15,164 nucleotides of DNA from a virus (Duplodnaviria; Heunggongvirae; Uroviricota; Caudoviricetes): positions 1-15,164 of the IMG/VR virus record IMGVR_UViG_2703718819_000014. One strand, given 5' to 3'. This document shows positions 1-14,727 of this stretch, in pieces. A model generated the notes under the pieces. It worked only from the letters and a program-made list of their open reading frames with translations. It was not told the origin of the DNA and searched no databases. Positions within the stretch are counted from its first letter, which is position 1. The number at the start of each line of letters is the position of its first letter. A program made the translations under genes and the position numbers.

Positions 1-1287
1 TCAGCGTCTTGCTCTGTGGGGCATGTATGGGACACTTTCAGCTAACTCCTTATTGAGCAGTTCTATCTGCCCGATATTGTTATCTTTCATCCATGCTCCG
101 TAAACATTGAATACCATCTGAGCGTTTGCGTGCCCCATCTGGTTTGCGATAAAGCTTGGATTCGCTCCTGCGGCCAGTGCCCAGCAGGCATAAGTATGCC
201 TTGACTGATAGGCTTTCCTGTGCCGTAGTCCGGCCCGTCTCAGGGCTGATGCCCATGAATCCCTGATGGAGTCCGCTTTGTAGTGGTAACCGGCTTGCTG
301 GCACTTTTTCACCAGTTGCGGATTAAAGACAAACGTGCATTCATGGCTTACGGTGCGTCCGAACTCCCGCAGTTTGACGTCAATCTGGTATTGAGTGCCA
401 AATCTTGTCATTTCAGCCTGACTTTTCAGGGTTTCAATGGCTGGTTGAACAAGATGAATAACACGATCTGTTCCCGCTTCGGTTTTTGGTAGAGTAAACT
501 CCCCGAGTTTTGTATAATTACGACGGATAGTCATTGTTTTAGCTTTTAAATCAATATCCTCCCAGGCGAGAGATATTAGCTCACCGTGACGGATGCCTGT
601 GTATACTGCTAAAGACCACAGGTTTTTCGTTTGTTGATGGTGGCAAGCATCAATAAAACGAATGAATTCGTCATGCGTGAGCGGATCTGGCTCGGTTCTG
701 GACCTTTTTAATGGTGTCAGGCCGTTAAACGGGTTTGATTCCGTGTAGCCGTTGTCAGCTGCAAATTGAAACATACCTGCAATTGTCGTCATGTAGTAAT
801 TAACTGTAACTACAGATCTCCCCTTAACAGGTGTTGTTTTGCCGTTTGAGAGATTGTGATACCCGGTCAATAAATCTTTCCTGATGAAGAGTAAATCTTC
901 TTTTGTTACAGATGAAGCCAGTCGGCTTTCCCCTATACGAGGCAACATGTTTCTCACCACAGATTGATACCGATTGAATGCGTTACCTCCTATTTCGATT
1001 TTTTTCAGATCCAGCCATTTTTCTGAAAGCGCCTTAATGGTTATCTCCTTTTTTCCCAGACCAAAGTGTTTCAGATTTGGGGACTCAGGAAACTGCGCAG
1101 CGTAGTCGAAATTCCCCATTCTGATTGCAAAACAAACTGAAGTCCTGAGTTCGCCTGCAATCTTCCGGTTTTTGGCTGTGTCAGGAACACCGAGGTTTTC
1201 TCTGACACGTTTGCCGTTATAGTGAAACCATATGCGGAGTGATCCGCCATGGTTTTCAACGCCTGTCGGGTATGATGTGTTACTCAT
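1..1287 (-). CDS. int: Tyrosine-type site-specific recombinase (phage integrase)
   Basis: 428-aa ORF; ATG at 1287-1285 with GGAGG 5 nt upstream; C-terminal region carries the conserved Arg/His/Tyr pattern of lambda-family integrases (RHGE, HxxR, RHTYACW); stop codon sits at the window edge, so attL is not visible. Confidence 0.9.
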   Translation of the reverse strand: MSNTSYPTGVENHGGSLRIWFHYNGKRVRENLGVPDTAKNRKIAGELRTSVCFAIRMGNFDYAAQFPESPNLKHFGLGKKEITIKALSEKWLDLKKIEIGGNAFNRYQSVVRNMLPRIGESRLASSVTKEDLLFIRKDLLTGYHNLSNGKTTPVKGRSVVTVNYYMTTIAGMFQFAADNGYTESNPFNGLTPLKRSRTEPDPLTHDEFIRFIDACHHQQTKNLWSLAVYTGIRHGELISLAWEDIDLKAKTMTIRRNYTKLGEFTLPKTEAGTDRVIHLVQPAIETLKSQAEMTRFGTQYQIDVKLREFGRTVSHECTFVFNPQLVKKCQQAGYHYKADSIRDSWASALRRAGLRHRKAYQSRHTYACWALAAGANPSFIANQMGHANAQMVFNVYGAWMKDNNIGQIELLNKELAESVPYMPHRARR

Positions 1288-1320
1288 TGAACCTCCCAGA
1301 CGTCCAGGAGCATTAACAGG

Positions 1321-1575
1321 TTAACCGGAACTTGCATTTTTGACACCTGGTTGTTTCTGGTTTTCGATCCATCGCATAATTTCTTCGATGTTGTACAGGC
1401 ATTCACTGTAATGCCCTGGATCACCTTCTACAGCGTAATGGCGGTATTCTTTTCCCTGCATCCATGACTTTCTTCTGGCCCGCTCGATGGTGCCAGGCTT
1501 TAGCCCTGTTGATGCAATGAGGACTCTCTCCGTACACCATTTGCTGGGGGTTATCTGATAGATGATTGTCTGCAT
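1321..1575 (-). CDS. xis: Excisionase-like small DNA-binding protein
   Basis: 84-aa ORF immediately upstream of and co-oriented with int (33-bp gap); GAGG RBS; basic, small, with a lambda-Xis-like KDGREY-type segment (QGKEYRHY). Assignment rests mainly on position and size. Confidence 0.6.
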   Translation of the reverse strand: MQTIIYQITPSKWCTERVLIASTGLKPGTIERARRKSWMQGKEYRHYAVEGDPGHYSECLYNIEEIMRWIENQKQPGVKNASSG

Positions 1576-1618
1576 GCCAACCTCATAAAACTTTCATCCA
1601 CGGCAGTGGCACCACACT

Positions 1619-1735
1619 TCAAACATTCGCTTCACATCTTCTGTACAACACGGTGTTGTTTATGCAGCGAACAATTTTTACCGGGTAACCGGCACTGTCG
1701 GTATACAGTTGTCCCTGATTAATCAGAGCGAACAT
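1619..1735 (-). CDS. Hypothetical small protein (38 aa)
   Basis: Internal ATG of track ORF 1619..1858; AGGAG 5 nt upstream of the ATG at 1735; lies just after the stop of the upstream ORF at 1767. No recognisable domain. Confidence 0.3.
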   Translation of the reverse strand: MFALINQGQLYTDSAGYPVKIVRCINNTVLYRRCEANV

Positions 1736-1766
1736 TTTTTCTCCTGCTCTCTGAATAGTGAGAACT

Positions 1767-2150
1767 TCAGAGCCGTATGTTTGTAGCGGGTTCAATGCTG
1801 ATAATTTCTGCTGAGATAAGCATCCCGGCAAGCCAGAGTTCCCCGGACAGGTCTTCATCCTGGCATATCAGTTCGCCAATATTAATGGTGGCCATGATAT
1901 CCGTTTTCCCTGTGCGCTCATCCAGGACTTCTTCATAAGGCAGCGTTGCGTACAGGCTTTCAATAGCGCAATTGATAACATCCAGTCCGGTCAGATTGCC
2001 GCCGACAGTAACTTCGAATGTTTCGCGGTATTCCCATAGTCCGAAAGTTAATCGAACGGTTTGTTTTGCCATGCGTCCGCACGACGTCAGATTCGGGTCA
2101 TAGTTCATTATTTGCGGTTGAGTATTCTGGTTGTTCATCTGATTTTCCAT
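1767..2150 (-). CDS. Hypothetical protein (127 aa), last large gene of the SPFH operon
   Basis: Track ORF 1767..2213; I prefer the ATG at 2150 (MENQMNNQ...) because the GTG at 2213 would overlap the SPFH gene by 35 nt. No recognisable motif. Confidence 0.5.
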   Translation of the reverse strand: MENQMNNQNTQPQIMNYDPNLTSCGRMAKQTVRLTFGLWEYRETFEVTVGGNLTGLDVINCAIESLYATLPYEEVLDERTGKTDIMATINIGELICQDEDLSGELWLAGMLISAEIISIEPATNIRL

Positions 2151-2178
2151 TAACCCGGCGGTTTGCCGGGCGTGTAAG

Positions 2179-3006
2179 TTATTTAATCTGGATAAATGGT
2201 GTATTGGCACCACTGGTCATGTATTGCGGCAGTGTACCGTTCCACTTGTTGATGGCTTCCAGCTCCATGACGCCAGGGTTCTGGCGCAGAGCTTCGCCGC
2301 GTAAACGAATGGCATCGGCTTCTGCCAGGGCTTTTGTTCGAATGGCATCAGCCTGTCCGGCAGCTTCTGCACGCAGCATGTTGGCCTCCGCTTCACGTTG
2401 CTTGACTTCCTGTTCGCGCTGCAGGGTTTTCTGGTTTGCCGTGACTTTGGCGTTAATGCTGTCGATAACGGTTGGCGGGTATTCCGGTTTACCTACATAA
2501 GAGAGGCTCATTACCTGAACGCCGATGGGGGTCATCTCTTCCTGAATGTCTTTAAGTGCGGCATCCAGTAGTTCAGACTTGCCGCCGTCGATAAATTTGT
2601 CGGTGGTCATTTTGCTGGCCAGTCGATTGAGTGCGTCGGCGATCTTCTGGCGCAGGTCAGTGGCGGTAATGTCATCCACGCCTTTGCGGTAGGTCTGAAA
2701 CACCGTGGTAACTTTGGATGGATCAACTTTGTAGGCAACACCGATGTGATAGCCGATGGTTGTGCCGTCACTCATCTGGAAGCTGAACGGCTCATCGTAG
2801 GTCTTCATTTGTTTGAAGGTTGGGAAGATGTAAACTTCAGTATTCCAGCCAGTCCAGTAGCGACCAACACCGACCACCTCACCGACGCCTTTATCGTCGC
2901 CCAGTTTATTTACTTTGATGCCAACATTACCGGGTTCAACGCGATCGCAGCCGACAAGGCCAATGGTCGGCAGAACAATGGCTAAAGCAAAAATAATTTT
3001 TTTCAT
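2179..3006 (-). CDS. SPFH/band-7 (HflK/C, flotillin-like) domain lipoprotein
   Basis: 275-aa ORF; N-terminal signal peptide with lipobox (MKKIIFALAIVLPTIGLVGC); central region of SPFH type; C-terminal Ala/Glu/Arg-rich coiled-coil (QREQEVKQREAEANMLRAEAAGQADAIRTKALAEADAIRLRGEA); AAGGA RBS 6 nt upstream; ATG overlaps the stop of the upstream ORF (ATGA). Confidence 0.8.
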   Translation of the reverse strand: MKKIIFALAIVLPTIGLVGCDRVEPGNVGIKVNKLGDDKGVGEVVGVGRYWTGWNTEVYIFPTFKQMKTYDEPFSFQMSDGTTIGYHIGVAYKVDPSKVTTVFQTYRKGVDDITATDLRQKIADALNRLASKMTTDKFIDGGKSELLDAALKDIQEEMTPIGVQVMSLSYVGKPEYPPTVIDSINAKVTANQKTLQREQEVKQREAEANMLRAEAAGQADAIRTKALAEADAIRLRGEALRQNPGVMELEAINKWNGTLPQYMTSGANTPFIQIK

Positions 3007-3191
3007 TTTTTATCCTTAGTGAAAGAAAGACCCTTGTAAATGGCATAAATGCAGGGCGGGGTCAGAAACGCCAGTGCAAAGCCAGAAGTAACTGCTATCG
3101 TATCCTTCATGGATATAAGGAACGGAACGAGTAATCCGTAAATGCATGCGATAATTGCCAGTAAAATTACTATTGTGAAATACAGTCTCAT
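3003..3191 (-). CDS. Small two-helix membrane protein (62 aa), SPFH partner
   Basis: Two hydrophobic segments (FTIVILLAIIACIYGLLVPFLI and AVTSGFALAFLTPPCIYAIY); stop overlaps the SPFH start codon, implying translational coupling. RBS is weak and the start is uncertain. Confidence 0.5.
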   Translation of the reverse strand: MRLYFTIVILLAIIACIYGLLVPFLISMKDTIAVTSGFALAFLTPPCIYAIYKGLSFTKDKK

Positions 3192-3335
3192 TGGTATGTG
3201 GTATCCCGATATTTTTAACTGACAGACAGCGCAATAAAGAGAATAATGATTTCTGTTATTGTCAGTACTGTGGCAAGGATTAAAAGCAGTTTTACTCTGC
3301 TTAATTCACGGTTGTTTTTCATATAAATGGTTAGT

Positions 3336-3360
3336 AAAAAACGGAAGAATTATATTCTTC
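3336..3360 (-). terminator. Intrinsic terminator ending the 3-ORF cargo cassette
   Basis: On the minus strand: GAAGAAT / 3-nt loop / ATTCTTC hairpin followed by CGTTTTTT, 16 nt after the stop of ORF 3376..3948. AT-rich stem, so moderate strength. Confidence 0.5.
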
Positions 3361-3375
3361 TTAATATTTAATGTG

Positions 3376-3948
3376 TCACTGGCCTTCTGGCATACCATGA
3401 GTATTCAGGTCGTTAATCATTTCATCCAGAAGGAGTTCAAGCCCTTCTCGCCCCATGTCTGAAACAATGAAACCTTTATCTGGGTATGTAATGAGCATTT
3501 TCTGATAAAGAAACAGCGCTCTACCCATTCCTTCTGCCTCGCCGTATTTTTGAATTAAATTCCATTCAATATACTGCTGTAAGGCAAACCGAATGGGGCC
3601 GGGATATATCGTCATAACCCCATGCTTCCCGTTATATATTACGGCGCGATCTGTTGTTCCGTGTTCATTCGGGACATCAATTGTGCCGTTCTTGTCTTCT
3701 TCTTCGTTGATGAATGTCGTCACATACAACCATCGCCACTGGGCAACCTTCATCTCAACCGGAAGTTTTCCCAGTAATCCTGCTTCGTCAGCTTGCGCGA
3801 GACACTGAAGGATACGTAAACCTCGCACATTAGGAGTATCGAATTCTCCAGCATCCAGACGGCGTATGGCGTCGTGATAATCAATAGTCATACTGCCTGT
3901 TTGTATACCATTGGCTGTTGCTTCAGCCTGGAATTCAGCGTATTGCAT
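3376..3948 (-). CDS. Hypothetical protein (190 aa)
   Basis: ORF with ATG at 3948, 5 nt after the stop of the upstream 60-aa ORF (RBS inside that ORF); followed by a terminator. No motif I can name. Confidence 0.6.
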   Translation of the reverse strand: MQYAEFQAEATANGIQTGSMTIDYHDAIRRLDAGEFDTPNVRGLRILQCLAQADEAGLLGKLPVEMKVAQWRWLYVTTFINEEEDKNGTIDVPNEHGTTDRAVIYNGKHGVMTIYPGPIRFALQQYIEWNLIQKYGEAEGMGRALFLYQKMLITYPDKGFIVSDMGREGLELLLDEMINDLNTHGMPEGQ

Positions 3949-3953
3949 GAAAT

Positions 3954-4136
3954 TTATTCCTCATCTTCATCTGCTGGTGCAATAACGTCATATCCTGCCT
4001 TTTCTGCAATAAACAGGAATGTTGAAAGATTTCCTACAAATTCATCGTCATGAACATGACGAATTAATATTACTTTCCCGTTTTTGATGGTCAGCAATAC
4101 TCTGGTTTGTTCGTGTTCTGCTGTTTTCTGATGCAT
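3954..4136 (-). CDS. Hypothetical small protein (60 aa) with acidic C-terminus
   Basis: ATG at 4136 with GGGAG 7 nt upstream; C-terminus ...APADEDEE; tightly coupled to the 190-aa ORF downstream. Confidence 0.5.
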   Translation of the reverse strand: MHQKTAEHEQTRVLLTIKNGKVILIRHVHDDEFVGNLSTFLFIAEKAGYDVIAPADEDEE

Positions 4137-4540
4137 TATTATCTCCCGTATGCTTTACGCAGAAACAAGCAGGCAATATGCATGTAATTTTCACCGTGTT
4201 GTGCAATAAGACAGGCTGTTTTGTGTGATGCCTTATGTTTTATAAAAGTCATAATAAAGCCTCCAGTGGATTAAGTGTGTGATAATCCCCGGCTATTAAG
4301 CCGTAATATATTATTCGCAGATGACTTGTTTTATTTAACTGGATAGTTCTGTTTCGGCTGCTGCTTCAGCATAGCAACGTGCAAATTCAAGAACTTCATC
4401 ACCTGTTCTTTTTATTGCATCGTTGTCTTACATTTGTAATACGACAACTGCGCATAATAAATCATGGATATTGTTTGCAAAGGAATCCGGTGCCAGGCAT
4501 AAGCCTTCATACTTATCATGGATATTGCCAGTCATTGTTG

Positions 4541-5233
4541 CTACTCCTTTGCTTCTGATTTTCCCGTTAACAACCACACCAGGTCACAATTAAGCGCACT
4601 GGCCAGTGGTACTATCTGATCAGCAGGAACTTCACAGATGCCGCATTCCCAGTCGTTTATGGGGTCACTATAGGTATGAATCATGCGGGCAAGATCAGAT
4701 TCGGTTAATCCCAGTTTTGTACGGGCGCTTTTGATGCGTGCGCCAATACTTTCCACATGGACTTCAGGCACATTTACGCGAATAACTGACTCGCTGTTTT
4801 TTTCACTCAGCAGAGAAAGCGGATCGCATCCCAGGACGTTTGCCAGGGGGATAAGCATGCTGATGGTTGGCTCGTACTCTCCACTCTCCCATTGCAGAAT
4901 AATCTCTTCGTCAAGATCGAGTAGTCTGGCTAGTTCGGTAGTCGTCAAGCCGCAGGCTTCACGTTTTGTGCGTATGCAGGCTATCTTGTTGCCTGAGCGA
5001 ATAGAATGTTGTTGTTTTGTCGATGCGATCGCTAAAGCATATTCATGAGTAAATTCCAGCACATCAAACCCAACCTCTTTTAATCGCGTATCATCCAGGA
5101 GGTTGAAGGTGCGAACAGCACTGAGCAGGTTTGCGATGGTTAATGCAAAAGAATCGAGGTCTAAATCATCACATAAAACCTTGTTGTAAGTATTGAGGCT
5201 ACATGTTTTTGGTGTTGTTTGTAAGGCTTCCAT
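4541..5233 (-). CDS. Tandem-HTH (two XRE-type helix-turn-helix domains) DNA-binding protein
   Basis: Two consecutive XRE-like HTH segments (...GLTTTELARLLDLDEEIILQWESGEYEPTISMLIPLANVLGCDP... and ...GLTESDLARMIHTYSDPINDWECGICEVPADQIVPLASALNCDLVWLL...) after an ~85-aa N-terminal region of unknown type. First in-frame codon at 5269 is TTG; the ATG at 5233 is preferred. Directly downstream of and co-oriented with the cI-like gene. Confidence 0.7.
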   Translation of the reverse strand: MEALQTTPKTCSLNTYNKVLCDDLDLDSFALTIANLLSAVRTFNLLDDTRLKEVGFDVLEFTHEYALAIASTKQQHSIRSGNKIACIRTKREACGLTTTELARLLDLDEEIILQWESGEYEPTISMLIPLANVLGCDPLSLLSEKNSESVIRVNVPEVHVESIGARIKSARTKLGLTESDLARMIHTYSDPINDWECGICEVPADQIVPLASALNCDLVWLLTGKSEAKE

Positions 5234-5315
5234 ATCATCACCATGCAATTCTAAGTTGAAGTTAATCAATATATAATTGATGGTGAGATATTATGTGTCA
5301 GGTAAACTAGTGTCA

Positions 5316-5340
5316 ATCAAAAATTGATAAACTTGATTTT
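5316..5340. promoter_or_regulatory. Operator-like palindrome plus an 11-mer shared with the cI/cro intergenic region
   Basis: Perfect 13-bp palindrome ATCAAAAATTGAT (5316-5328), immediately followed by AACTTGATTTT (5330-5340), which recurs exactly at 6108-6118. Lies between the cI stop and the tandem-HTH gene start. Confidence 0.35.
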
Positions 5341-5380
5341 TTTGTAGTGGGTGACAAATAATTTAATTTAAAATCAACAA

Positions 5381-6070
5381 CTAACCAAATCTGTTGATAT
5401 TGAATGGTACAGATGAGATGACTTTTGACTGGATATACAGCAGCGCCATTCCCTCTTTTTCGATGCTCCACGGCTGATAGTTGGGATTGTCTGATAAGAC
5501 CATGATCTTGCTTCCAATTTTTTGAAGTCGTTTGACGTAACATTCGCCATCAAAGCAAAATGCATAAATGCCATCACCGTCAAAATAAGTTACTGTTTTA
5601 TCTAAAAACAGTAAGTCACCTGGGGCGATTGTTGGGGCCATGCTGTCCCCTCTGGCGTTACCGATTTCTATGTTCTTGAATGCTCTGTTACCGACCAGGC
5701 GGCGGGCATATTCAGGATCAAGTTCTATTGAGCGTACTACATCAATTAGATCTCCCCGTACATGAGTTCCGTCGCCGCAGCTGAATTCAACATCCAGCAC
5801 ATTGAACACAACGCTGTCTTCTCTTGTATGGTGTTTTTCAGCTGAAGAGTGTGTCGATGAGGTATCTTCACCCAAAAACCAGGATTGTGGATAACCACTA
5901 ATTACTGATAGTTGTGCAAGTTTATCGCTTCTGGGAAACGTCTTTCCTGTAGTCCAGTATTGTACTGATTGTGCGCTTACACCCAGCTTACGGGCTAGTT
6001 CAGCCTGACTCCAGCCTTTTGTTTTCAGCATCATTGCTATCCGATTTTCTGTGCTTTTTACATTCTTCAT
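5381..6070 (-). CDS. CI-like prophage repressor (HTH + S24 LexA-type autopeptidase)
   Basis: N-terminal XRE HTH (GWSQAELARKLGVSAQSVQYWTTGKTFP); C-terminal S24 signature with Ser in GDSMAPTI and Lys in CYVKRLQK; divergent from a cro-like gene across a 130-bp repeat-rich region. Start chosen at M11 of the track ORF (MKNVK...). Confidence 0.85.
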   Translation of the reverse strand: MKNVKSTENRIAMMLKTKGWSQAELARKLGVSAQSVQYWTTGKTFPRSDKLAQLSVISGYPQSWFLGEDTSSTHSSAEKHHTREDSVVFNVLDVEFSCGDGTHVRGDLIDVVRSIELDPEYARRLVGNRAFKNIEIGNARGDSMAPTIAPGDLLFLDKTVTYFDGDGIYAFCFDGECYVKRLQKIGSKIMVLSDNPNYQPWSIEKEGMALLYIQSKVISSVPFNINRFG

Positions 6071-6100
6071 GGTGAGTTCCTGTCGAGGCTTTATACACAT

Positions 6101-6202
6101 AAATATTAACTTGATTTTAGTGTATTCGATCCTTTTGAAACTTGCATGTTAATTTATTCTTGATGTATTCTTGATTTGTAAAGTTAATGTTGGAGCTGTG
6201 CT
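6101..6202. promoter_or_regulatory. Divergent immunity promoter/operator region (PRM/PR-like)
   Basis: AT-rich intergenic region between divergent repressor genes. Contains tandem direct repeats TATTCTTGAT (6155-6164, 6166-6175), a degenerate copy GTATTCGAT (6122-6130), and AACTTGATTTT (6108-6118); all share a TTGAT core. Individual -35/-10 hexamers were not confidently assigned. Confidence 0.5.
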
Positions 6203-6460
6203 GTGATAAAACTGAATGATTACGACATGTTGCGTAAATTGATTCCTCAAAACGCCATAGCAAGATACATCGGTGTTACGCCACAAGCGGTGAACCTGTG
6301 GTTTTCTAAAAACTCCGTTCCTTCTCGTTTTGTTTTACGGGTGTGTGAGTTAGTTGAATGGAAGGTTACTCCGCATGGGTTAAGACCTGATCTATACCCT
6401 TATCCCGAAGATGGAATTCCTGATTCGTTACGAAAATCAAACGGTATTACCAGAGATTAA
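6203..6460 (+). CDS. Cro/YdaS-like small HTH regulator
   Basis: 85-aa ORF divergent from cI-like gene; GTG start with GGAG 6 nt upstream; HTH segment IARYIGVTPQAVNLWFSKNSVP resembles the Rac YdaS/Cro-type fold. Confidence 0.7.
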   Translation: MIKLNDYDMLRKLIPQNAIARYIGVTPQAVNLWFSKNSVPSRFVLRVCELVEWKVTPHGLRPDLYPYPEDGIPDSLRKSNGITRD

Positions 6461-6541
6461 AGACTGACTGTCACGAGTAGTAACTCACGATGCATACGTT
6501 TTGGCGTGAGTTCTGAAATGTCATCCTCAAGGAGCAATCAG

Positions 6542-7249
6542 ATGAATACCGCAATTTTTACCGATAAAGCATCCATGACCAGCGTTGAAATCGCAGAGCT
6601 GGTGGGCAGCCGCCATGACAAAGTGAAACAATCCATTGAGCGCCTTGCTGAACGAGGGATTATTCAGCTTCCCCCAATGGGGATTTCTGAAAATATCAAT
6701 GGGTTAGGTTTAACTCAAAAAAGTAAGCATTATCTTTTCGAAGGTGAACGAGGCAAGCGCGACAGCATCATTGTTGTCGCACAGCTTTGCCCTGAATTCA
6801 CCGCCCGCCTGGTAGATCGCTGGCGCGAACTGGAAGAACAAATCCGTAAACCAATGAGCCAGATCGAAATGGTTGCTGCAATGGCACTTGAAGCCGTTCG
6901 CCAACAAAGACGTCTTGAGCAGGTGGAAGAGAAAGTCAGCCACGTTACCGAAACAGTCGAGCAAATCAAAAGAGGCACCATACGTGATGGTTATGCAGGT
7001 TACCGTCAGCTGGTGGCGAAAACGGGTATGTCAGATGCGAAATGCCGCAATCTGGTGAACGCATATCAGATCCCTACCGATACCCATGAATTTATGACGC
7101 CGGATGGATTGTTGTCTCGTCGCGCGATTGTTGCAGTAGAACCCTTCATGTCTGCTTTTCATCGAATGATGAGTGAAGCAGAACCACGAGGTGCACGCTG
7201 GTATCACCCGAAAATGGGGCTGTTCCAGGCGCTGGGCTGGCAGGTGTAA
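6542..7249 (+). CDS. Rha-family phage regulatory protein (antirepressor-like), paralog 1
   Basis: AAGGAG 6 nt upstream of ATG at 6542; N-terminal region (MTSVEIAELVGSRHDKVKQSIERLAERGII ... YLFEGERGKRDSIIVVAQL) matches the Rha/ORF6N-type pattern. Confidence 0.7.
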   Translation: MNTAIFTDKASMTSVEIAELVGSRHDKVKQSIERLAERGIIQLPPMGISENINGLGLTQKSKHYLFEGERGKRDSIIVVAQLCPEFTARLVDRWRELEEQIRKPMSQIEMVAAMALEAVRQQRRLEQVEEKVSHVTETVEQIKRGTIRDGYAGYRQLVAKTGMSDAKCRNLVNAYQIPTDTHEFMTPDGLLSRRAIVAVEPFMSAFHRMMSEAEPRGARWYHPKMGLFQALGWQV

Positions 7250-7268
7250 TTATGCTCACAGGTAGCAC

Positions 7269-7448
7269 ATGCAAGTACTCAATCGCTGGTTCCGTGATGG
7301 AAGGGGGCGTCGCGTCCACGTTATACGCTGGGAGCCTGAAACACAGCGCGTTATCTATCTTCGCAAAGACTACCCGCATGAGTGCTTTAGTCCTTTGTGG
7401 AAATTCAGGCGTGATTTTGTTGAGTGTGAAGGAACACCAGCATATTGA
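7269..7448 (+). CDS. Small basic hypothetical protein (59 aa), not in the ORF track
   Basis: ATG at 7269 in a different frame from track ORF 7252..8277; translation MQVLNRWFRDGRGRRVHVIRWEPETQRVIYLRKDYPHECFSPLWKFRRDFVECEGTPAY looks protein-like (balanced composition, Trp/Cys spacing); just below the 60-aa threshold. Confidence 0.4.
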   Translation: MQVLNRWFRDGRGRRVHVIRWEPETQRVIYLRKDYPHECFSPLWKFRRDFVECEGTPAY

Positions 7449-7725
7449 TTCTGCAATTCCGGGACGTTACACTGTTCCGGCACCTTATAAAGCGGGTGCC
7501 GGGCGTGGAAACCCGAAATTCAATATAGAGCACAACCGCGCTCATGCGGTTTTTTCGTGTCATGAGCATCGTTACGCCCAAATTATGGTGGGGCGTGCAG
7601 GGCCAACTTCGGTTGGGCCGGGTTCTATGTTGACCGGTATTTCCACCCCTGTACGTCTCACCACCTATATGGTCGTGGAAAGCCTTGGTGGTGAGTTCAT
7701 TGAATTCAACATAGGGGCTGTCACC

Positions 7726-8277
7726 ATGACTACTCTCCCAACCCAATCTCACCCTGAAATCACGATTATCAATGGTCGCGTTGTCACCACATCTCTTGCA
7801 GTAGCTAATTACTTTACTAAACGGCATGAGCGGGTTTTAGATAGAATTAGAAACCTCGAATGTTCCGCTGAATTTACTGAACACAATTTTGTGTTAAGTG
7901 AATACACCGACGCATCAGGCCGCAAACTCCCTTGTTACCAAATCACCCGCGACGGTTTTGCATTTCTTGCTATGGGTTTCACGGGTAAACGTGCTGCCCG
8001 GTTCAAAGAAGCATACATCAATGCCTTTAACCAGATGGAGAGGTGCTTATCAGGAGTTGGTGCGGCTGATATGCCATCTGTCGCACAAAACGCCAGAGGC
8101 GTATACCTGCATTTGCGAGAAATCCACCAAATCTGGACAAGCCAGCTTTATCCCATGCTTAAGGCTGTTGAATCTCCGCTGGCTAGCAAACTGTACGACC
8201 GTGTAGGTGATGCTGTTTTTGGTGCTGCACTTGTTGATTCCAGACTGAACGGTTCTGACAAGGAGGCGCACCCATGA
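7726..8277 (+). CDS. Rha-family phage regulatory protein, paralog 2
   Basis: Internal ATG of track ORF 7252..8277; from MTTLPTQSHPEITIINGRVVTTSLAVANYFTKRHERVLDRIRNL ... YQITRDGFAFLAMGFTGKRAARFKEAYINAFNQME follows the Rha-domain pattern. The upstream 474 nt of the long ORF lacks coding signals. Confidence 0.7.
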   Translation: MTTLPTQSHPEITIINGRVVTTSLAVANYFTKRHERVLDRIRNLECSAEFTEHNFVLSEYTDASGRKLPCYQITRDGFAFLAMGFTGKRAARFKEAYINAFNQMERCLSGVGAADMPSVAQNARGVYLHLREIHQIWTSQLYPMLKAVESPLASKLYDRVGDAVFGAALVDSRLNGSDKEAHP

Positions 8278-8507
8278 TTCGCCGCGTCGTTAGTTCCCTG
8301 TATCACCGATACAACCACTGCCCCCGTGTGGGGCAGTGGTTCACCACCAGCAACGGTCACGTTCTGCGGGTTTGCCTGGTCAATACAGAAAGCCAGAAGG
8401 TTGTCTGCCAGGTTCAGGGATGTACTCATACCCTGAGTTATCCGCTGGTGGCGTTTCAGTCCGGAAAAATGTTTAAACGCCTGGGAGGTGGCTATGCGTC
8501 CGTCTGA
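8274..8507 (+). CDS. Small Cys-containing hypothetical protein (77 aa)
   Basis: AAGGAGG 7 nt upstream; ATG overlaps the stop of Rha paralog 2 (ATGA); four Cys at positions 16, 34, 45, 50; 3' end overlaps the replication-initiator start. Confidence 0.5.
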   Translation: MIRRVVSSLYHRYNHCPRVGQWFTTSNGHVLRVCLVNTESQKVVCQVQGCTHTLSYPLVAFQSGKMFKRLGGGYASV

Positions 8508-9387
8508 TCTTCTGCTCGATTTTGGACATCCGGTTGCTTATTACCCTGGGCTCGTTAAATACATGGGAAGTCCGCACGCTGTTATTTTCTTTGGTCAGAT
8601 TTTTTACTGGCAGGATAAAGCACATGCAGCGGAAGGCGTACATAAAACGCGTGAAGAGATACAACACGAAACAGGACTTACATTTGAACAACAGGCTGTA
8701 GCGCGTAAGCATCTTGTGTCCAGAGGCATTTTGGTTGAAACCAACAAGCGTCTTGAGCACAAAATGTTCTACCGTATAGATTGTGAGCGCCTTAATGAAA
8801 TTATCAATGAAAACAATCAGTTTTCCCGAAATGGGGAAACCCGTTTTCGGGAAACTGTAAAACCCAATTTCGCGGAGGAGGGAAAGCCTTCACCGCGGGC
8901 ACGGGAAACCCCTCGCCGCGGAGAAGGGAAAACCAATTTCGATCTTACAGAGAATACAACAGAGATTACTTCAGAGAATACTACAGAGAGTAAAAACACT
9001 ATTGGCGCATCCGCTGACGCGTCTGCACCAGCACGTTCTGCCCGACAGGAATATTCACCGGAATTTGAACAGGCCTGGCAGGAATATCCCAAACGTGCTG
9101 GTGGTAATTCCAAGTCAGCTGCTTTCAAAGCCTGGAAAGCCCGTATCAGGGAAGGTGTGACACCCGAAATCATGCTCAACGGTGTGAAACGCTATGCCGC
9201 CTGGGTGCGTGTCTCAGGAAATATCGGTACCCAGTTCGTGAAGCAGGCGTCGACGTTCTTTGGCCCCGATCGGCACTTTGACGAATTCTGGCAACAGCCA
9301 GCAGCCCCCGGAGGTGGGCGGGGCAAAAGCCTCCCAATCTCGGGATTCAGTGAACAGGATTACGGCTCAACGAACTTCAACTGGTGA
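8494..9387 (+). CDS. Replication initiator / replisome-organiser protein (lambda O / Rac YdaU-like)
   Basis: GGGAGG 5 nt upstream of ATG 8494; coding sequence contains iteron-like repeats; basic C-terminal segment EFEQAWQEYPKRAGGNSKSAAFKAWKARIREGV; immediately upstream of the DnaC-like and DnaB-like genes. Confidence 0.65.
   Translation: MRPSDLLLDFGHPVAYYPGLVKYMGSPHAVIFFGQIFYWQDKAHAAEGVHKTREEIQHETGLTFEQQAVARKHLVSRGILVETNKRLEHKMFYRIDCERLNEIINENNQFSRNGETRFRETVKPNFAEEGKPSPRARETPRRGEGKTNFDLTENTTEITSENTTESKNTIGASADASAPARSARQEYSPEFEQAWQEYPKRAGGNSKSAAFKAWKARIREGVTPEIMLNGVKRYAAWVRVSGNIGTQFVKQASTFFGPDRHFDEFWQQPAAPGGGRGKSLPISGFSEQDYGSTNFNW
8833..8992. repeat. ori-like iteron array inside the initiator gene
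   Basis: Five copies of GGGAAA(A)CC-type repeats at about 8833, 8848, 8880, 8903 and 8926, followed by four tandem ~12-bp ACAGAGA(A/T)TAC units (8947-8992). Matches the lambdoid layout of iterons plus an adjacent repetitive tract inside the O gene. Confidence 0.5.
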
Positions 9388-9406
9388 TTTTGTGGGGAGG
9401 GTGAAA

Positions 9407-10297
9407 ATGACTAATTTCCTGAACAAACAACACATGCAACACGACAAAGCGCAGTTACTTAACCGCAAGGCAGACTTGGAAGAGGAGCTGGCATTTGTCC
9501 GTGGCGGAAAGCGTCCGTGGCGCTGTGAGCATTGGGTGCAAAGCACTGAGACGGTGTCCTGCGGGAAACACGGAAAATACACGCGCTATGTGCTGACGGG
9601 CCCGGATGTAAGGGGGAAAGCTGTCAAACGGGTGTCCGGTTGCCTGTCCTGCCTCAGTGAGGAGCTGGACCGCGTGTATGACGAATTACGCGCCCTGAAG
9701 GTTCGTGAATTACTCGATCAGGCCGGTATTGCCCGCCGGTTCCAGGACTGTGAGTTTGAGAATTATCAGGCGGTGAATACTGACGCACAGAAAAACCTTG
9801 AAGCCTGTCAGCGCTATGCCGCTTCCTGGAAGAAATGTCTCGCTGCAGGCACCAGCATGGTCATGATTGGCAATTGTGGTACCGGGAAAAATCACCTGGC
9901 TGTATCAATGGCAAAAAATATTATTCGCCACCACCAGGCAACCATAGAAATCACGGATGTGATGCGGCTTACCCGTGCGGTGAAAAATACCTGGCGCCAC
10001 AACTCTGAGCGCACTGACGATGAAGTGATTAATCATTTTGCATCGCTGGATCTGCTTATCATCGATGAGGTTGGTGTGCAGTTCGGTACGCCTGCGGAGA
10101 TAACCATCCTGCAGGAAATCATAAATGCACGTTACGAAAGCGTTTTACCGACAATTTTGATCAGCAACCTGACGTTTGAACAGCTTAAGGAATCCATTGG
10201 TGAACGGATTGTGGATCGCGTTACTGATGGTGGGCGTAACTGCCTGGTGTTTGGTTGGGAAAGCTACCGTGCGCATATCAGAGGTGTGGCAGCATGA
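9407..10297 (+). CDS. DnaC/IstB-like AAA+ helicase loader with N-terminal Cys cluster
   Basis: GGAGG 6 nt upstream of ATG 9407; Walker A GNCGTGKNHLA, Walker B LLIIDEVG; N-terminal CEHW...SCGKHG...GCLSC zinc-finger-like cluster. Confidence 0.85.
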   Translation: MTNFLNKQHMQHDKAQLLNRKADLEEELAFVRGGKRPWRCEHWVQSTETVSCGKHGKYTRYVLTGPDVRGKAVKRVSGCLSCLSEELDRVYDELRALKVRELLDQAGIARRFQDCEFENYQAVNTDAQKNLEACQRYAASWKKCLAAGTSMVMIGNCGTGKNHLAVSMAKNIIRHHQATIEITDVMRLTRAVKNTWRHNSERTDDEVINHFASLDLLIIDEVGVQFGTPAEITILQEIINARYESVLPTILISNLTFEQLKESIGERIVDRVTDGGRNCLVFGWESYRAHIRGVAA

Positions 10298-11694
10298 CAA
10301 ACCCGACAAATCCGGCGTGGCGTAATGATGACCTGGAAGGAGCTGTCATTGGCGCGTTTTTTCTGCGAGGGGCTGATCCGGAAGTGATGGATATTCTGGC
10401 CACACTTCCGGCGGATGTCTTTTTCGTGCGTCAGTACAGGGATATTTACGCGGGAATTTGCAGACAGGCCCGTGTATCCGGCGTCATTGACCCCGTACTG
10501 CTGTGCAATGAGATGCCGGAACTTGCCCCGGTGATTACCGACACCGGACGCAAAACCTGGGTGAAGTCTTCACTGGAGCACTATGTTGCAGCGCTGCGGC
10601 GCAATGCCGCACTGCGCGATGCAGAAAAAACACTGACCGAAGCATTACAGAATTTACGTGATGCGCATACCTGTGAAGCAGCTGAGGATGCCCTGAAGGA
10701 TGCGCAGAACATGATGACCTCACTGTCGACCGGAAAGGGCGTCATTCAGCCGGTTCACATTGATGATGTTCTTCCGGAAGTGGTCGACCGTGTTGAATGC
10801 CGCAATCAGGGACTGGAGAAATCCAGGGCACTGATGACCGGTATTGATGAACTGGACGCAAAAACGGGCGGTATGGAGCCAGGCGACCTGGTATTCATTG
10901 CGGCCCGTCCTTCGATGGGGAAAACCGAACTTGCGCTGGATATCATCGACAAGGTGACTGAGCAGGGGCATGGCGTGCTTCTGTTCACCATGGAGATGGC
11001 GAACATCCAGATTGGTGAACGTATGGTGTCTGCTGCCGGTGGAATGCCGGTATCCCGTCTTAAGTCTGTTGCCCGTTTTGAAGATGAAGACTGGGCGCGT
11101 TTCTCGCAGGGCGTGGGACGAATGACGGGGCGTAATATCTGGATGGTGGACCAGGCAAACCTGACCATTGATGAGATATGTGCAACCACGAGGCACCACC
11201 GGATGAAACACCCGGAAACGGCGCTGGTGGTGGTCGATTACCTCGGCCTGATTAAAACCCGCAGCACGGGGCGTCACGACCTTGCTGTGGGGGAAATCTC
11301 AAAGGGACTTAAAAGCCTGGCAAAATCCGGCGGTTTTCCGCTGATTGCTCTGAGCCAGCTCTCCCGTGGCGTGGAATCCAGACCCAATAAACGCCCCATG
11401 AACTCGGACCTGAAAAACTCAGGGGAAATAGAGGCGGATGCAGACATCATTCTGATGCTTTACAGGGATGAGGTGTACAACCCGGAGACACAGGCGAGAG
11501 GCATAGCTGAAATCAACATCACGAAACAGCGTAATGGCACGCTGGGTACCATTTACCGGCGTTTTCATAACGGGCATTTTCTGCCTGTGGATCAGGAGAG
11601 TGCCCGGGTTCTTTCCACTCCCATGACGCCGGGCAATCCGCGCAGATACAGCAATAACCGCATGTCGGGTAGTAAAACGGAGCGTTTATTTTGA
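10294..11694 (+). CDS. DnaB-like replicative DNA helicase
   Basis: 466 aa; ATG overlaps the DnaC-like stop (ATGA); RecA-fold C-terminal domain with Walker A ARPSMGKTELAL and Walker B-like ALVVVDYLGL. Confidence 0.85.
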   Translation: MTNPTNPAWRNDDLEGAVIGAFFLRGADPEVMDILATLPADVFFVRQYRDIYAGICRQARVSGVIDPVLLCNEMPELAPVITDTGRKTWVKSSLEHYVAALRRNAALRDAEKTLTEALQNLRDAHTCEAAEDALKDAQNMMTSLSTGKGVIQPVHIDDVLPEVVDRVECRNQGLEKSRALMTGIDELDAKTGGMEPGDLVFIAARPSMGKTELALDIIDKVTEQGHGVLLFTMEMANIQIGERMVSAAGGMPVSRLKSVARFEDEDWARFSQGVGRMTGRNIWMVDQANLTIDEICATTRHHRMKHPETALVVVDYLGLIKTRSTGRHDLAVGEISKGLKSLAKSGGFPLIALSQLSRGVESRPNKRPMNSDLKNSGEIEADADIILMLYRDEVYNPETQARGIAEINITKQRNGTLGTIYRRFHNGHFLPVDQESARVLSTPMTPGNPRRYSNNRMSGSKTERLF

Positions 11695-11948
11695 ACAACA
11701 GAACAACCACTGTTTCACCGGAACAACTTCGTCGGCAGGCGCAGGAGATGCTTCGTTGTGCTGAACAGATGGAAAAAACGAGCGTGGCAAAAGATACGCT
11801 CCGCAAGCAGCTTACTCCGGCGCTTCGTGATCTGCTGCAGGCAAAACACCGCACACAAAAGGCGGTGGATGAGCTGGTGGATTGCGTGGCGGAACTGGAA
11901 GGCCAGGTAAGCCAGTTTGAAACGCTGGTGAAAGAGTTTACTGCGTGA
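11691..11948 (+). CDS. Hypothetical small coiled-coil protein (85 aa)
   Basis: ORF overlapping the helicase stop; first codon TTG; helical heptad-like composition. Start and reality uncertain. Confidence 0.4.
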   Translation: MNNRTTTVSPEQLRRQAQEMLRCAEQMEKTSVAKDTLRKQLTPALRDLLQAKHRTQKAVDELVDCVAELEGQVSQFETLVKEFTA

Positions 11949-11999
11949 TGGCTGAATTTTTTCTCCTGCGTTCATGCAATACCGTTCGCTGAGGTGACC

Positions 12000-12989
12000 G
12001 TGAGAGCACTGCTGACCCCTGAAATTGCCCCGCGTATGGGGATCGTCTTGTTCAGACCCGGTTCAGAGCTGATGCCCCTGTTTATGCAGGGGCGTGTCCT
12101 GCTGGAGCCTGAGCCGGAACGTTATTCATCTTTTGCCAGTGGTGCCGTTCCGGCAGCATCACAACCGCTGGCGGATGATCCTGCCGTTCGGGCCGTGTTC
12201 CGCCATGAGGCGGTGATCCGTCGTGCTGGTGGCGTGGAATGCCTTGAGAGCTGGTTACTTCGTGAAAAAGGCTGCCAGTGGCCTCATTCCGGATGGCACA
12301 GCGAGAACATGACCACAATGCGACACGCGCCGGGCGCAATCCGTCTGTGCTGGCACTGCGATAACCTGCTTCGCGATCAGTTCACGGAACGTCTGGAGTC
12401 AATGGCAACGGATAACTGTGCCCGCTGGGTGTTGTCCGTAGTCCGTCGTGATCTCGGTTTTGATGACAGTCACGTTGTGACAATGCCTGAACTGTGCTGG
12501 TGGCTGGTTCGTAATGACCTGGCGGATGCCTTACCGGAAAGTGCAGCCCGTAAGGCCCTGAGATTACCGAAGCCTGTTTTGCCGTCTGTCACCCGGGAGA
12601 GTGACCTTGTGCCTTCGGTTCCTGCCACCAGCATTATCCAGGATAAAGCGAAAAAGGTGCTGGCGCTGAAAGTGGATCCGGAGTCGCCGGAGTCTTTTAT
12701 GTTACGCCCCAAACGTCGTCGCTGGGTTAATGAAAAGTACACGCGCTGGGTTAAGACGCAGCCGTGTGCATGTTGTGGTAAGCCAGCCGACGATCCGCAT
12801 CACCTGATTGGTCATGGTCAGGGTGGAATGGGTACAAAAGCGCATGACCTTTTTGTGTTGCCTTTGTGCAGAAAACACCATGACGAACTGCATGCGGATA
12901 CCGTGGCATTTGAAGAGAAGTATGGTTCCCAACTGGAGCTGATATTTCGTTTTATCGATCGCGCGCTGGCGATTGGTGTGCTGTCCTGA
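12000..12989 (+). CDS. DUF968-like (Qin YdfU-type) protein with C-terminal Cys/His motif
   Basis: C-terminal CACCGKPADDPHHLIGHGQGGMGTKAHDLFVLPLCRKHHDELH resembles the DUF968 / HNH-like metal-binding pattern found beside Q in Qin-type prophages. Start uncertain: GTG at 11994 or 12000 (GAGG 5 nt upstream), or ATG at 12036. Confidence 0.6.
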   Translation: MRALLTPEIAPRMGIVLFRPGSELMPLFMQGRVLLEPEPERYSSFASGAVPAASQPLADDPAVRAVFRHEAVIRRAGGVECLESWLLREKGCQWPHSGWHSENMTTMRHAPGAIRLCWHCDNLLRDQFTERLESMATDNCARWVLSVVRRDLGFDDSHVVTMPELCWWLVRNDLADALPESAARKALRLPKPVLPSVTRESDLVPSVPATSIIQDKAKKVLALKVDPESPESFMLRPKRRRWVNEKYTRWVKTQPCACCGKPADDPHHLIGHGQGGMGTKAHDLFVLPLCRKHHDELHADTVAFEEKYGSQLELIFRFIDRALAIGVLS

Positions 12990-13006
12990 TTTTGTGGAGA
13001 AAGTTG

Positions 13007-13399
13007 ATGCGTGATATTCAGATGGTTCTCGAACGCTGGGGGGCATGGGCGGCAAGTGGTAACGCCGGGGTGGACTATTCTCCGATAGCTGCTGGATTTA
13101 AAGGCCTTTTACCATCCACCGCTAAACCTCGCCCGGCCTGCAGCGATGATGACGGCCTTATCATCGAAAACTGCCTTACGCGCCTGAAGAAGAAAAAACC
13201 GGACGAGTATTCGCTGCTGGTAGCTCATTATCTGCTGCGCATATCAAAAAGGCAGATTGCCAGAACAAGAAAGAAGAGCGAAAAGGCAATACGAATTGAG
13301 ATGCAGATTGCTGAAGGATTTATTGACGGATGTCTGTCGATGCTGGGTGTAAGGCTGGAGATGGACGACTGGCTGCCCAAAAAAGTAAAAAATGATTAG
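13007..13399 (+). CDS. Late-gene antiterminator, Q family (phage-82/P22 gp23 type)
   Basis: 130 aa; N-terminus MRDIQMVLERWGAWAA and ...AAGFKGL...C.DDD...RLKKK.PDEY.LL..YY match the Phage_antitermQ-type pattern; GGAG RBS. Coordinates taken from the ORF track. Confidence 0.75.
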   Translation: MRDIQMVLERWGAWAASGNAGVDYSPIAAGFKGLLPSTAKPRPACSDDDGLIIENCLTRLKKKKPDEYSLLVAHYLLRISKRQIARTRKKSEKAIRIEMQIAEGFIDGCLSMLGVRLEMDDWLPKKVKND

Positions 13400-13459
13400 C
13401 GCGGTCCGCAAAAAGTATGTCAGTATGTTAAGAGTGGTTACTACGCCACACAACTTAAA

Positions 13460-13481
13460 CCCGCCGCCTGGCGGGTTTTTT
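13460..13481 (+). terminator. Intrinsic terminator about 60 nt downstream of Q
   Basis: CCCGCC / GCCT / GGCGGG hairpin followed by TTTTTT; preceded by a CA-rich unstructured tract CGCCACACAACTTAAA. Confidence 0.7.
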
Positions 13482-13600
13482 ATGACTGAAATCGCATCAG
13501 TACAGTAAACGTGCTGGTGGTGAATACCTGTCTTTCAGCTTGCTGGCTTTTTAGACAAGAGTTATTGGTATGTCACGTTAACCGGAAAAGGGAAAAAGAC

Positions 13601-13798
13601 ATGCTAAAACAGCAGGATATGACAGAAACCGCCAGAGTGGTGTTTAATGAATTAAGCGTCACCTACCCGGCGACAGTCGGGGAGATTGCGCAGAATACTT
13701 ACCTTTCACGCGAACGCTGCCAGTTAATACTGACCCAGCTGGTTATGGCGGGTCTGGCAGACTATCAGTTCGGTTGTTACAGACGCCTTCCGCAGTGA
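13601..13798 (+). CDS. Small putative winged-helix DNA-binding protein (65 aa)
   Basis: Internal ATG of track ORF 13511..13798 with AGGGA upstream; size and pattern (VGEIAQNTYLSRERCQLILTQLVMAGL) resemble small PapI/FaeA-type regulators; followed directly by a terminator. Weak assignment. Confidence 0.45.
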   Translation: MLKQQDMTETARVVFNELSVTYPATVGEIAQNTYLSRERCQLILTQLVMAGLADYQFGCYRRLPQ

Positions 13799-13812
13799 AG
13801 GCTTTTTTATTT
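13785..13812 (+). terminator. Intrinsic terminator
   Basis: GCCTTC / CGCAGT / GAAGGC hairpin overlapping the stop of the small ORF, followed by TTTTTTATTT. Confidence 0.65.
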
Positions 13813-13922
13813 GTGGTAAATGGGCGGCTGGTGGGTGTGGTGGTTGTTGCTTTCCCGTTGCTGAAAAAGAAAGCATCAGGCGATTAGCAGGGTATCAGTT
13901 ACCCGTTGAAATTTTTAAATAC

Positions 13923-14152
13923 CTCACAATTCAGGCGGTTGACTGTTGTCTGGTTTGCGGGGAGTTTGTTAAAAGAAACTGGCATGGTGAATCCCCCTGT
14001 GCGGAGGGGCAATCAGCAACTGGTGTTTTGTCACCGACCCTTATCCTTTCTGTGCGGGTTCAGGTGCTGATACTGAACTCACCGGGAGGCACCCGGCACC
14101 ATGCAATGGCACATAGCGCCACTCTCCAGCCCCTCTCCGGAGGGGCTTTTCT
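13923..14152 (+). ncRNA. Candidate structured sRNA module, copy 1 (includes its terminator 14129-14152)
   Basis: Conserved blocks shared with copy 2 at identical spacing: CTCACAATTCAG, TTGACn (+16), TTTGTTAAAA (+42), GCATGGTGAATCCCCCTGnGCGGAGGGGC (+59), CTGAACTCACCGGGAGGCACCCGGCACCATG, then hairpin GCCCCTC/TCCG/GAGGGGC + TTTT. The 5' GCATGGTG can pair with 3' CACCATGC, closing a 123-nt domain. Confidence 0.4.
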
Positions 14153-14341
14153 GTGCCGGATACATCACAGTTTCTGGAACCTTGGGTACTACAGTATCAG
14201 TCAGGGTGCTATATTTTCAGATGTGATGAAAGCCTGTCAGCAGGCAGGGCGTATCGGAAATGACCCAGTAGAGAAAACGTTGACTCAGATACCGGTGCTG
14301 AGTTACCGGGAAACCGGCATCACATGACCGCTATCCTTCCA

Positions 14342-14368
14342 GGCCCATCCGCTCCGGTGGGCCTTTTT
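14342..14368 (+). terminator. Intrinsic terminator
   Basis: GGCCCA / 10-nt loop / TGGGCC hairpin followed by TTTTTA. Confidence 0.55.
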
Positions 14369-14405
14369 ACTGCAGAAAACAGGTTCCCCGTTAAATGCTA
14401 TGTTG

Positions 14406-14640
14406 CTCACAATTCAGTAAGTTGACAGTTGCCTGTCAGACTGGGCATTTGTTAAAAAAATTTCGCATGGTGAATCCCCCTGAGCGGAGGGGCGACTGGT
14501 GACGGTATAATCTCTGATTATCAAAACGAGAATGACGCGGGTTTAGTGGCACCGGGCTGAACTCACCGGGAGGCACCCGGCACCATGTGCATGATGATAC
14601 AGATACACGGCTTTAGCCCCTCTCCGGAGGGGCTTTCTTG
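14406..14640 (+). ncRNA. Candidate structured sRNA module, copy 2 (includes its terminator 14616-14640)
   Basis: Same block order and spacing as copy 1 (blocks at +16, +42, +59); closing helix GCATGGTG ... CACCATGT spans 124 nt (the one change gives a G-U pair); intervening sequence differs from copy 1; terminator hairpin GCCCCTC/TCCG/GAGGGGC followed by a weak U-tract (TTTCTT). Confidence 0.4.
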
Positions 14641-14645
14641 TGGGC

Positions 14646-14672
14646 AAAAAAAAAGCCCGAGTGGGTTCGGGC
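14646..14672 (-). terminator. Intrinsic terminator on the minus strand, back-to-back with the copy-2 terminator
   Basis: On the minus strand: GCCCGA / ACCCAC / TCGGGC hairpin followed by nine T (plus-strand A9 at 14646-14654). Confidence 0.6.
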
Positions 14673-14694
14673 AACAGCATGAGATATACATTTT

Positions 14695-14700: not shown

Positions 14701-14727
14701 CGAATGGATTTTAACCAGAATTCATAA

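Follow-up and report, generated by a model that had tools for sequence, protein, structure and literature searches.

A tandem helix-turn-helix gene beside the cI-like repressor of a lambdoid prophage is probably the first gene of the early-left operon

Introduction

From which promoter, and in which state of the phage, is a gene expressed that lies directly beyond the immunity repressor of a lambdoid prophage? The question is raised by a minus-strand gene encoding two tandem helix-turn-helix (HTH) domains in IMG/VR virus record IMGVR_UViG_2703718819_000014, of which we analysed positions 1 to 15,164. This stretch of 15,164 nt (hereafter the window) covers the complete early region, int through Q, of a lambdoid prophage. 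The tandem-HTH gene is located directly downstream of, and co-oriented with, a gene for a cI-like repressor with HTH and S24 domains. In lambda, rexAB lies between cI and OL/pL and is read from pRM, and a sequence-only reading of the window had assigned the tandem-HTH gene to the same position, as a gene tied to the immunity switch and possibly expressed in the lysogen. Our analysis bears that reading out in part: the link to the switch appears right, the direction and the position wrong. The 147-bp spacer separating the two genes is probably the OL/pL region of this phage, and the tandem-HTH gene its first early-left gene, controlled by cI and encoding a modular early regulator of the XRE family.

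Results

A predicted promoter and cI-type operators precede the tandem-HTH gene

The spacer, whose length of 147 bp is correct as first given when it is counted from the ATG at 5233, contains the best promoter-like site in the interval 4200-6500, TTGACA-17-TAATAT, with 10 of 12 positions matched. This predicted leftward promoter lies between two 17-bp dyads, one sharing 5 bp with the −35 hexamer, the other covering approximately +1 to +17. The dyad at the −35 hexamer contains ATCAAAAATTGAT (5316-5328), previously described as a perfect 13-bp palindrome; it has only 5-bp arms (ATCAA/TTGAT) around a non-symmetric AAA, and the conserved register is that of the 17-bp dyad 5312-5328. The perfect dyad at the transcription start (5265-5281) and the promoter between the dyads had been overlooked. 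Promoter and dyads are kept in three relatives with the same repressor type, PhiR49_2, UTAK-4 and phi467, all with the −35 and −10 hexamers retained and one with a different form of the downstream gene.

Scanning the whole 15-kb window with the motif ATCAAK-N5-MTTGAT, scored over 12 positions, we found the best matches at 5265-5281 (12/12), at 5312-5328 and 6099-6115 (both 11/12) and then at 6148-6164 (10/12); chance alone would give about 0.165 sites of at least 11/12 in a 15-kb window. The spacer thus has operators of the type found between cI and cro, and the proposed coupling of the gene to the immunity switch is supported. A local shuffle test of the cI-cro region gave P = 0.0055, and the operator nearest cI in that region (6099-6115) is kept in loci L004, L007 and L009 despite diverged flanks.

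The coupling had originally been proposed from an 11-mer, AACTTGATTTT, of which the window does contain exactly two copies, at 5330-5340 (+) and 6108-6118. Taken alone this match is suggestive and only modestly significant, since 3.2% of dinucleotide-preserving shuffles of the two AT-rich regions (26% and 32% GC) share an exact 11-mer. The spacer copy sits inside a 20-nt repeat whose counterpart, 6105-6124, shows 85% identity, and phi467 has an analogous extra half-site with a 13-mer in common with its own OR. Judged by its sequence, the 11-mer is a further copy of the operator half-site.

These findings bear directly on the possibility that the gene is lysogen-expressed cargo in a rexAB slot (a sensor, exclusion or defence protein) and is co-transcribed with cI. 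Lambdoid phages often have lysogen-expressed genes beside cI, the tandem-HTH gene follows cI directly in the same orientation, and an intrinsic terminator is not detectable after cI in this lineage. However, the gene follows a near-consensus promoter of its own, with cI-type operators on both sides, and is separated by it from cI as no such element separates rexAB in lambda; it also heads an operon that continues to xis and int. A clear intrinsic terminator lies between cI and this promoter in two of the three same-type relatives. The protein gave no RexA or RexB match in Pfam, and in PADLOC it gave generic HTH matches only (RmrA, CapH, C-protein) and no other catalogued defence protein, with no match for the neighbouring genes; the defence reading, and with it the suggested exclusion role, was dropped. 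We therefore regard a lysogen-expressed cargo gene as quite unlikely and predict that the gene is off in the lysogen.

The strong intrinsic terminator GGGCTTTGCCCGTTTTTTT is found between cI and pL in L004 (3520-3555) and in L009; in the window, 5345-5380 is an AT-rich replacement.

The operators and the N-terminal domain are exchanged together with the repressor

In three immunity types, operator sequence co-varies with repressor type in both regions. Type B loci (Stx1 phages, that is, phages encoding Shiga toxin (Stx) 1, together with Stx2_12E129_yecE and phiP27) carry GATAC-N4-GTATC dyads, three of them in the spacer and another three in the cI-cro interval, and the type C locus (ASU11) has AATAG-N6-CTATT dyads both in the spacer and in the cI-cro region. 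When each locus was scanned with the dyads of the other types there were no matches in spacer or cI-cro regions. (A longest-common-substring matrix of spacer against OR across types was too noisy in AT-rich DNA and was replaced by these dyad scans.) The co-variation argues that the spacer is OL and the cI-cro region OR. As in lambdoid OL/pL regions, the promoter reads away from cI and is overlapped by at least two operators of the cI-cro consensus.

Comparison with four other immunity types also delimits the exchangeable cassette. Nucleotide homology stops at 4965-4980 and resumes at 6523-6542, and the positions of these mosaic joints agree in five immunity types. The left one coincides with codon ~87 of the tandem-HTH gene, at the junction of its N-terminal domain (N-domain) and first HTH domain (HTH1), and the right joint with the roi start codon. 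Exchange of the cassette thus carries the N-domain along with cI, cro and the operators, and the HTH domains are common to the types. Consistent with this, N-domain type and cI type show a strict 1:1 association in 80 IMG/VR loci and in phiP27, the protein is matched at 90-93% identity over residues 87-230 in type-B phages, and HTH1 hardly varies over at least five immunity types.

The conservation of the HTH domains also speaks to whether the protein could be a second immunity repressor, for which the spacer palindromes and the 11-mer would be autoregulatory operators and which would bind beside the immunity promoters as well. It is common for XRE regulators to control their own promoters through dyads there, and the same motif does occur in the spacer and in the cI-cro region. 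Yet the dyads co-vary with cI and are wholly different in type B, where the HTH domains are nearly the same; this conservation across types with unrelated operators argues that the dyads belong to cI/Cro and not to the tandem-HTH protein. A second-layer regulator acting on the shared motif is thus very unlikely. By the same comparison, the immunity operators are an unlikely DNA target of the tandem-HTH protein, which should instead recognise a site that all these phages share or that the host carries. Outside the tandem-HTH gene, 12-mers shared by all five immunity types are limited to the coding sequence of roi and the isrK/C4 RNA genes, and no conserved non-coding motif was found at the cro-roi junction.

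The non-coding 12-mers conserved in all five immunity types are confined to 7443-7504 and include a promoter-like TTGATT-17-TACACT just before the start of isrK, which makes this interval a candidate pan-immunity regulatory site. Rfam places isrK at 7480-7556 (+, 61.6 bits) and the C4 antisense RNA at 7581-7668 (+, 82.4 bits), directly upstream of a Rha/Ant-like gene at 7726-8277. Together the three look like an RNA-controlled antirepressor module of the P1 immI type, and they are more likely to form a second immunity layer than is the tandem-HTH protein. A long open reading frame (ORF), 7252-8277, runs through isrK and C4; the part upstream of the ATG at 7726 is probably an artefact.

The protein is modular, with one nearly invariant HTH domain

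The reading frame of the tandem-HTH gene is open from a TTG (4541-5269), but all homologues begin M-E/K-A/T-L and the true start is therefore almost certainly the ATG at 5233 rather than the TTG at 5269. Pfam HTH_3 matches the protein in two stretches (60.1 bits against a cut-off of 23), which assigns it to the XRE or Cro/C1 HTH family and agrees with the two tandem domains, behind an unknown N-terminal domain of about 85 residues, that had been read from the sequence alone. The second domain (HTH2) matches DicA, the 434 repressor (E 3.6e-6, PDB sequence search) and P22 c2, and the structure model gives HTH folds of the five-helix 434/P22 kind, with Foldseek TM-scores (template modelling) of 0.92-0.95 to P22 c2, normalised to target length. 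The AlphaFold2 model comprises a two-helix hairpin (residues 26-78), HTH1 (84-141), a disordered linker and HTH2 (163-223). Its mean predicted local distance difference test score of 68 and predicted TM-score of 0.32 suggest that the modules are flexibly linked.

As a whole, the architecture has no analogue among the Foldseek and PDB sequence matches, all of which were to single HTH domains (P22 c2, 434 cI/Cro, SinR). Wmk of Wolbachia prophage WO likewise holds two Cro/C1-type HTH domains in one phage polypeptide, and HTH2 aligns with the second of them; that alignment scores 40 bits where the cut-off is 300, and host, context and N-terminal domain all differ. The N-domain (~86 residues) is close to an orphan: it belongs to no Pfam family, gave no match when used alone as query in a word-index protein search, and in an exhaustive phmmer search found only two clusters among 1.84 billion representatives. 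At least five N-domain types occur across the family. In the model the domain is a helical hairpin, which probably serves dimerisation.

Conservation is concentrated in HTH1. In the family alignment 35 of the 37 invariant columns fall in this domain, and its 56 codons show 19 synonymous against 4 non-synonymous differences when compared with the divergent member in L050; synonymous differences thus far exceed non-synonymous ones, which indicates strong purifying selection. The corresponding counts against divergent members are 24 and 16 for HTH2 and 2 and 10 for the linker, so that, on codon comparison, the constraint on HTH2 is weaker than on HTH1. The family also includes forms with one HTH domain that lack HTH2. 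These end in ...LGCDPMWLLTG, with HTH1 joined to the tail of HTH2, a structure that points to deletion or duplication, in frame, between the repeats. For one and the same N-domain and cI type, both one-HTH and two-HTH forms are found (e.g., P0097, P0098, P0105; phiP27 L10). Taken together, these comparisons describe a modular XRE-family protein, expected to bind DNA, whose hairpin N-domain is followed by a strongly constrained HTH1 and, beyond a flexible linker, by an HTH2 that is optional.

Homologues are almost confined to E. coli and bear names such as "helix-turn-helix domain-containing protein" or "transcriptional regulator". Comparative papers on Stx phages list HTH gene families, this one without characterisation. 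RgdR, a prophage regulator of type III secretion, proved to be unrelated; it is a 99-residue protein reported to resemble no known protein.

A small paralogue of the N-domain lies directly downstream

A co-directional 66-codon ORF is homologous to the N-domain of the tandem-HTH protein (BLASTP, 43% identity over 47 residues, E 2e-9). In hhalign comparisons the 66-residue protein matched N-domain types A, C and D with probabilities of 97.6%, 89% and 80%, and types B and E not at all. Of 81 loci, 77 have a gene with this domain no more than 750 bp downstream, either as the 66-residue protein or as the C-terminus of a 121-127-residue protein (phiP27 L08 type). In this window only, the ORF is interrupted by an in-frame TAA at codon 36 (4428-4430, Ser36 to stop); the EH031 prophage (99% identical) has it uninterrupted, as do all carriers among the 80 IMG/VR loci.

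Could the two genes encode a regulator and its antagonist, the small paralogue forming heterodimers with the regulator or inactivating cI? In Bacillus subtilis, SinR and SinI interact through helical-hairpin domains, and the present locus resembles that pair in having an XRE-HTH regulator with a helical domain next to a small gene homologous to that domain; PDB 1b0n is among the Foldseek matches. The order of domains is reversed here, with the hairpin N-terminal, and there are two HTH domains. A second precedent is the TF-smORF module, in which a phage transcription factor gene and a small ORF are divergent and SOS-independent and the small product is a cognate-specific antirepressor (Silpe et al., 2023, PMC10432266). 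The shared feature is an XRE-type transcription factor gene beside a small ORF in the regulatory region of a temperate phage. In those modules the small ORF is read divergently from an independent promoter (PMC10432266), whereas here the genes are co-directional, 6 nt apart and under a predicted cI-controlled pL. Moreover, the same small protein (95-100% identical) is found beside N-domain types B and E, to which it has no homology, and beside five unrelated cI types, which makes a specific partnership unlikely; and in the window the small ORF has a nonsense codon while the regulator is intact. On balance an antagonist pair seems unlikely.

The two-gene operon layout might also suggest something like a type II toxin-antitoxin pair, in which the XRE protein would be the antitoxin and the small downstream product the toxin, the more so as the HTH domains gave sub-threshold NCBIfam matches to the Y4mF/HipB, MqsA and PezA antitoxin families. 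The scores are all far below the curated cut-offs (45.2 against 71.65, 38.3 against 61.8 and 13.8 against 290 bits), the 66-residue partner is a paralogue of the regulator's N-domain and not a known toxin fold, and the pair would be under the cI-controlled pL promoter. We consider a toxin-antitoxin pair extremely unlikely. Inactivation of the small ORF with the "antitoxin" retained says nothing either way.

Gene order, relatives and feature coordinates

The interval 4300-6500 is 97% identical to several Stx2a-converting phages of E. coli strains that produce Shiga toxin, and 4200-6210 is 99% identical to E. coli EH031; a match is present in 158 of 5426 complete E. coli genomes (~3%). Leftward, on the minus strand, the order is cI-like repressor, spacer, tandem-HTH gene, 66-codon ORF, ORFs of 37, 60 and 190 residues, a gene for an SPFH-domain protein, DUF5406, DUF4222, xis and int. 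Rightward follow a YdaS-type cro, a Roi/Rha-like gene, DUF4222, the isrK and C4 RNA genes, the Rha/Ant-like gene, replication genes and Q (12992-13399). A Pfam scan of the window ORFs from int to Q gave no match to the N, cII or cIII families. Coordinates are collected in Table 1.

Table 1. Features of the tandem-HTH locus, in window coordinates
Feature	Position	Strand	Description
Tandem-HTH gene	4541-5233	-	230 aa + stop; from ORF list and translation; full-length match to PHROG 4836 (E 4.6e-92)
N-domain, aa 1-86	4976-5233	-	Two long helices, aa 26-45 and 49-78 (AlphaFold2 model); linked to immunity type; nearly orphan
HTH1, aa 87-142	4808-4975	-	Nearly invariant over the family; coordinates checked by translation
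HTH2, aa 162-227	4553-4750	-	434/P22-repressor-like; optional in the family; coordinates checked
66-codon paralogue of N-domain	4335-4535	-	PHROG 4587; begins 6 nt past the tandem-HTH stop; co-directional
Predicted pL promoter	5288-5316	-	−35 TTGACA (5316-5311), 17-nt spacer, −10 TAATAT (5293-5288); near-consensus sigma-70
OL dyad ATCAAT-ATATA-ATTGAT	5265-5281	.	Perfect, 12/12; top match of whole window; kept in same-immunity relatives
OL dyad GTCAAT-CAAAA-ATTGAT	5312-5328	.	11/12; 17-bp register kept in relatives, 13-bp register not
11-mer AACTTGATTTT	5330-5340	+	CTTGAT half-site, flanks like the OR site nearest cI; weak third OL site (predicted)
cI-like repressor	5381-6070	-	229 aa from ATG 6070; Pfam Peptidase_S24 and HTH_3; labelled CI in Stx phage records
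OR operator ATAAAT-ATTAA-CTTGAT, nearest cI	6099-6115	.	11/12; independent region; contains most of the 11-mer copy at 6108-6118
OR operator GTTAAT-N5-CTTGAT, nearer cro	6148-6164	.	10/12
OR operator CTTGAT-N5-CTTGAT	6159-6175	.	9/12; overlaps the 6148-6164 site
cro-like gene, YdaS family	6203-6460	+	Pfam YdaS_toxin, 37 bits; PHROG 35
Exchangeable immunity cassette	4973-6530	.	N-domain codons, OL/pL, cI, OR, cro

The 37-codon ORF (4139-4252, minus strand) fills an apparent gap between the 66-codon ORF and the 60-residue gene; it has a GGAGG Shine-Dalgarno sequence and is annotated in related Stx1 phages, without a family match. Downstream of Q there are two copies of the small RNA STnc100 (13953-14158 and 14436-14645, plus strand) and a match to AsxR, an anti-stx2 small RNA (14650-14702, minus strand), an arrangement consistent with the late-promoter region of a Stx phage.

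Discussion

The arrangement described here resembles the OL/pL region of lambda and its first early-left gene (N, or gene 24 in P22) in two respects: a leftward promoter lies directly beyond the repressor, with operators that share the OR consensus, and these operators are specific to the immunity type and lie inside an exchangeable cassette with conserved flanks. It differs in that rexAB is missing between cI and OL, that the left cassette joint falls inside the first gene, and that this immunity type has only two strong OL dyads and a half-site. The first gene itself is also different, encoding a tandem XRE-HTH protein where lambda N is an arginine-rich RNA-binding antiterminator.

We infer the following course of events. 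A leftward sigma-70 promoter would be held between two 17-bp cI operators, one on its −35 and the other on its transcription start, with the 11-mer as a third half-site, and cI binding would keep the tandem-HTH gene off in the lysogen. Occupying the position of lambda N, the gene would then supply one of the first proteins made upon infection or induction. Its most likely role would be that of an early transcription factor in the lysis/lysogeny decision or in the delayed-early programme.

A more specific proposal would make the protein a CII-like regulator. By elimination the protein leads the candidates: a phage that lacks N, cII and cIII would otherwise be without that function. PHROG 4836 is labelled "CII-like regulator", a database annotation only, and an unverified one. 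YdaT of CP-933P, described as POU-like, is a functional equivalent of lambda CII (PMC9986795). Like these two, the tandem-HTH protein is an HTH regulator of lambdoid phages, predicted to be early and common to several immunity types. In contrast to theirs, its gene is in the leftward operon and not to the right of cro. CII (PF05269) is not among its Pfam matches at E <= 0.1, YdaS_toxin scored 13 bits against a cut-off of 30, and no pRE-like target was identified in the 12-mer comparison of immunity types or at the cro-roi junction. We hold a CII-like role to be a reasonable guess, but a rather doubtful one.

Several observations weigh against an OL/pL region followed by a cI-controlled early regulator. 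Because the spacer itself supplied the dyad consensus, independent support comes only from the cI-cro sites and the relatives, and the operators near cro are weaker matches, at 9-10 of 12 positions. Folding predicted no terminator after cI in the window lineage (z = -0.09); given this, read-through from pRM into the tandem-HTH gene is possible in the lysogen. As to the regulatory role, the 12-mers shared by all five immunity types yielded no candidate for the protein's own target site, the CII-like proposal is based on elimination and on the database label just mentioned, and our literature search, which included the comparative papers on Stx phages, found no experiment on any member of the family. 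Weighing these points against the promoter, the co-varying operators and the cassette limits, all drawn from sequence comparison, we still consider the OL/pL assignment likely to be right.

The joint within the gene raises one further possibility, namely that the N-domain is immunity-specific for a functional reason and not by linkage alone: it would bind the cognate cI or Cro or pair with the 66-residue paralogue much as SinI pairs with SinR, and HTH1 would act on a shared site. We regard this as improbable. If it were true, the first product of pL would be a chimeric coupler whose immunity-specific head reads the state of its own switch and whose pan-immunity HTH1 acts on DNA common to co-resident phages, for example the isrK/C4-ant module, and there could be cross-talk between Stx prophages in polylysogens.

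The architecture is largely ordinary for lambdoid phages; the tandem-HTH protein itself is uncharacterised. Placing it behind OL/pL corrects a plausible misreading of its gene as lysogen-expressed cargo, and through the comparison three immunity types now have defined operators and the cassette has exact limits. This lambdoid phage type without N, cII and cIII includes many Stx1- and Stx2-converting phages, in which the choice of lysogeny governs toxin release, and for these phages a conserved early protein, predicted to bind DNA, is singled out as a lead for the missing CII- or N-like function.

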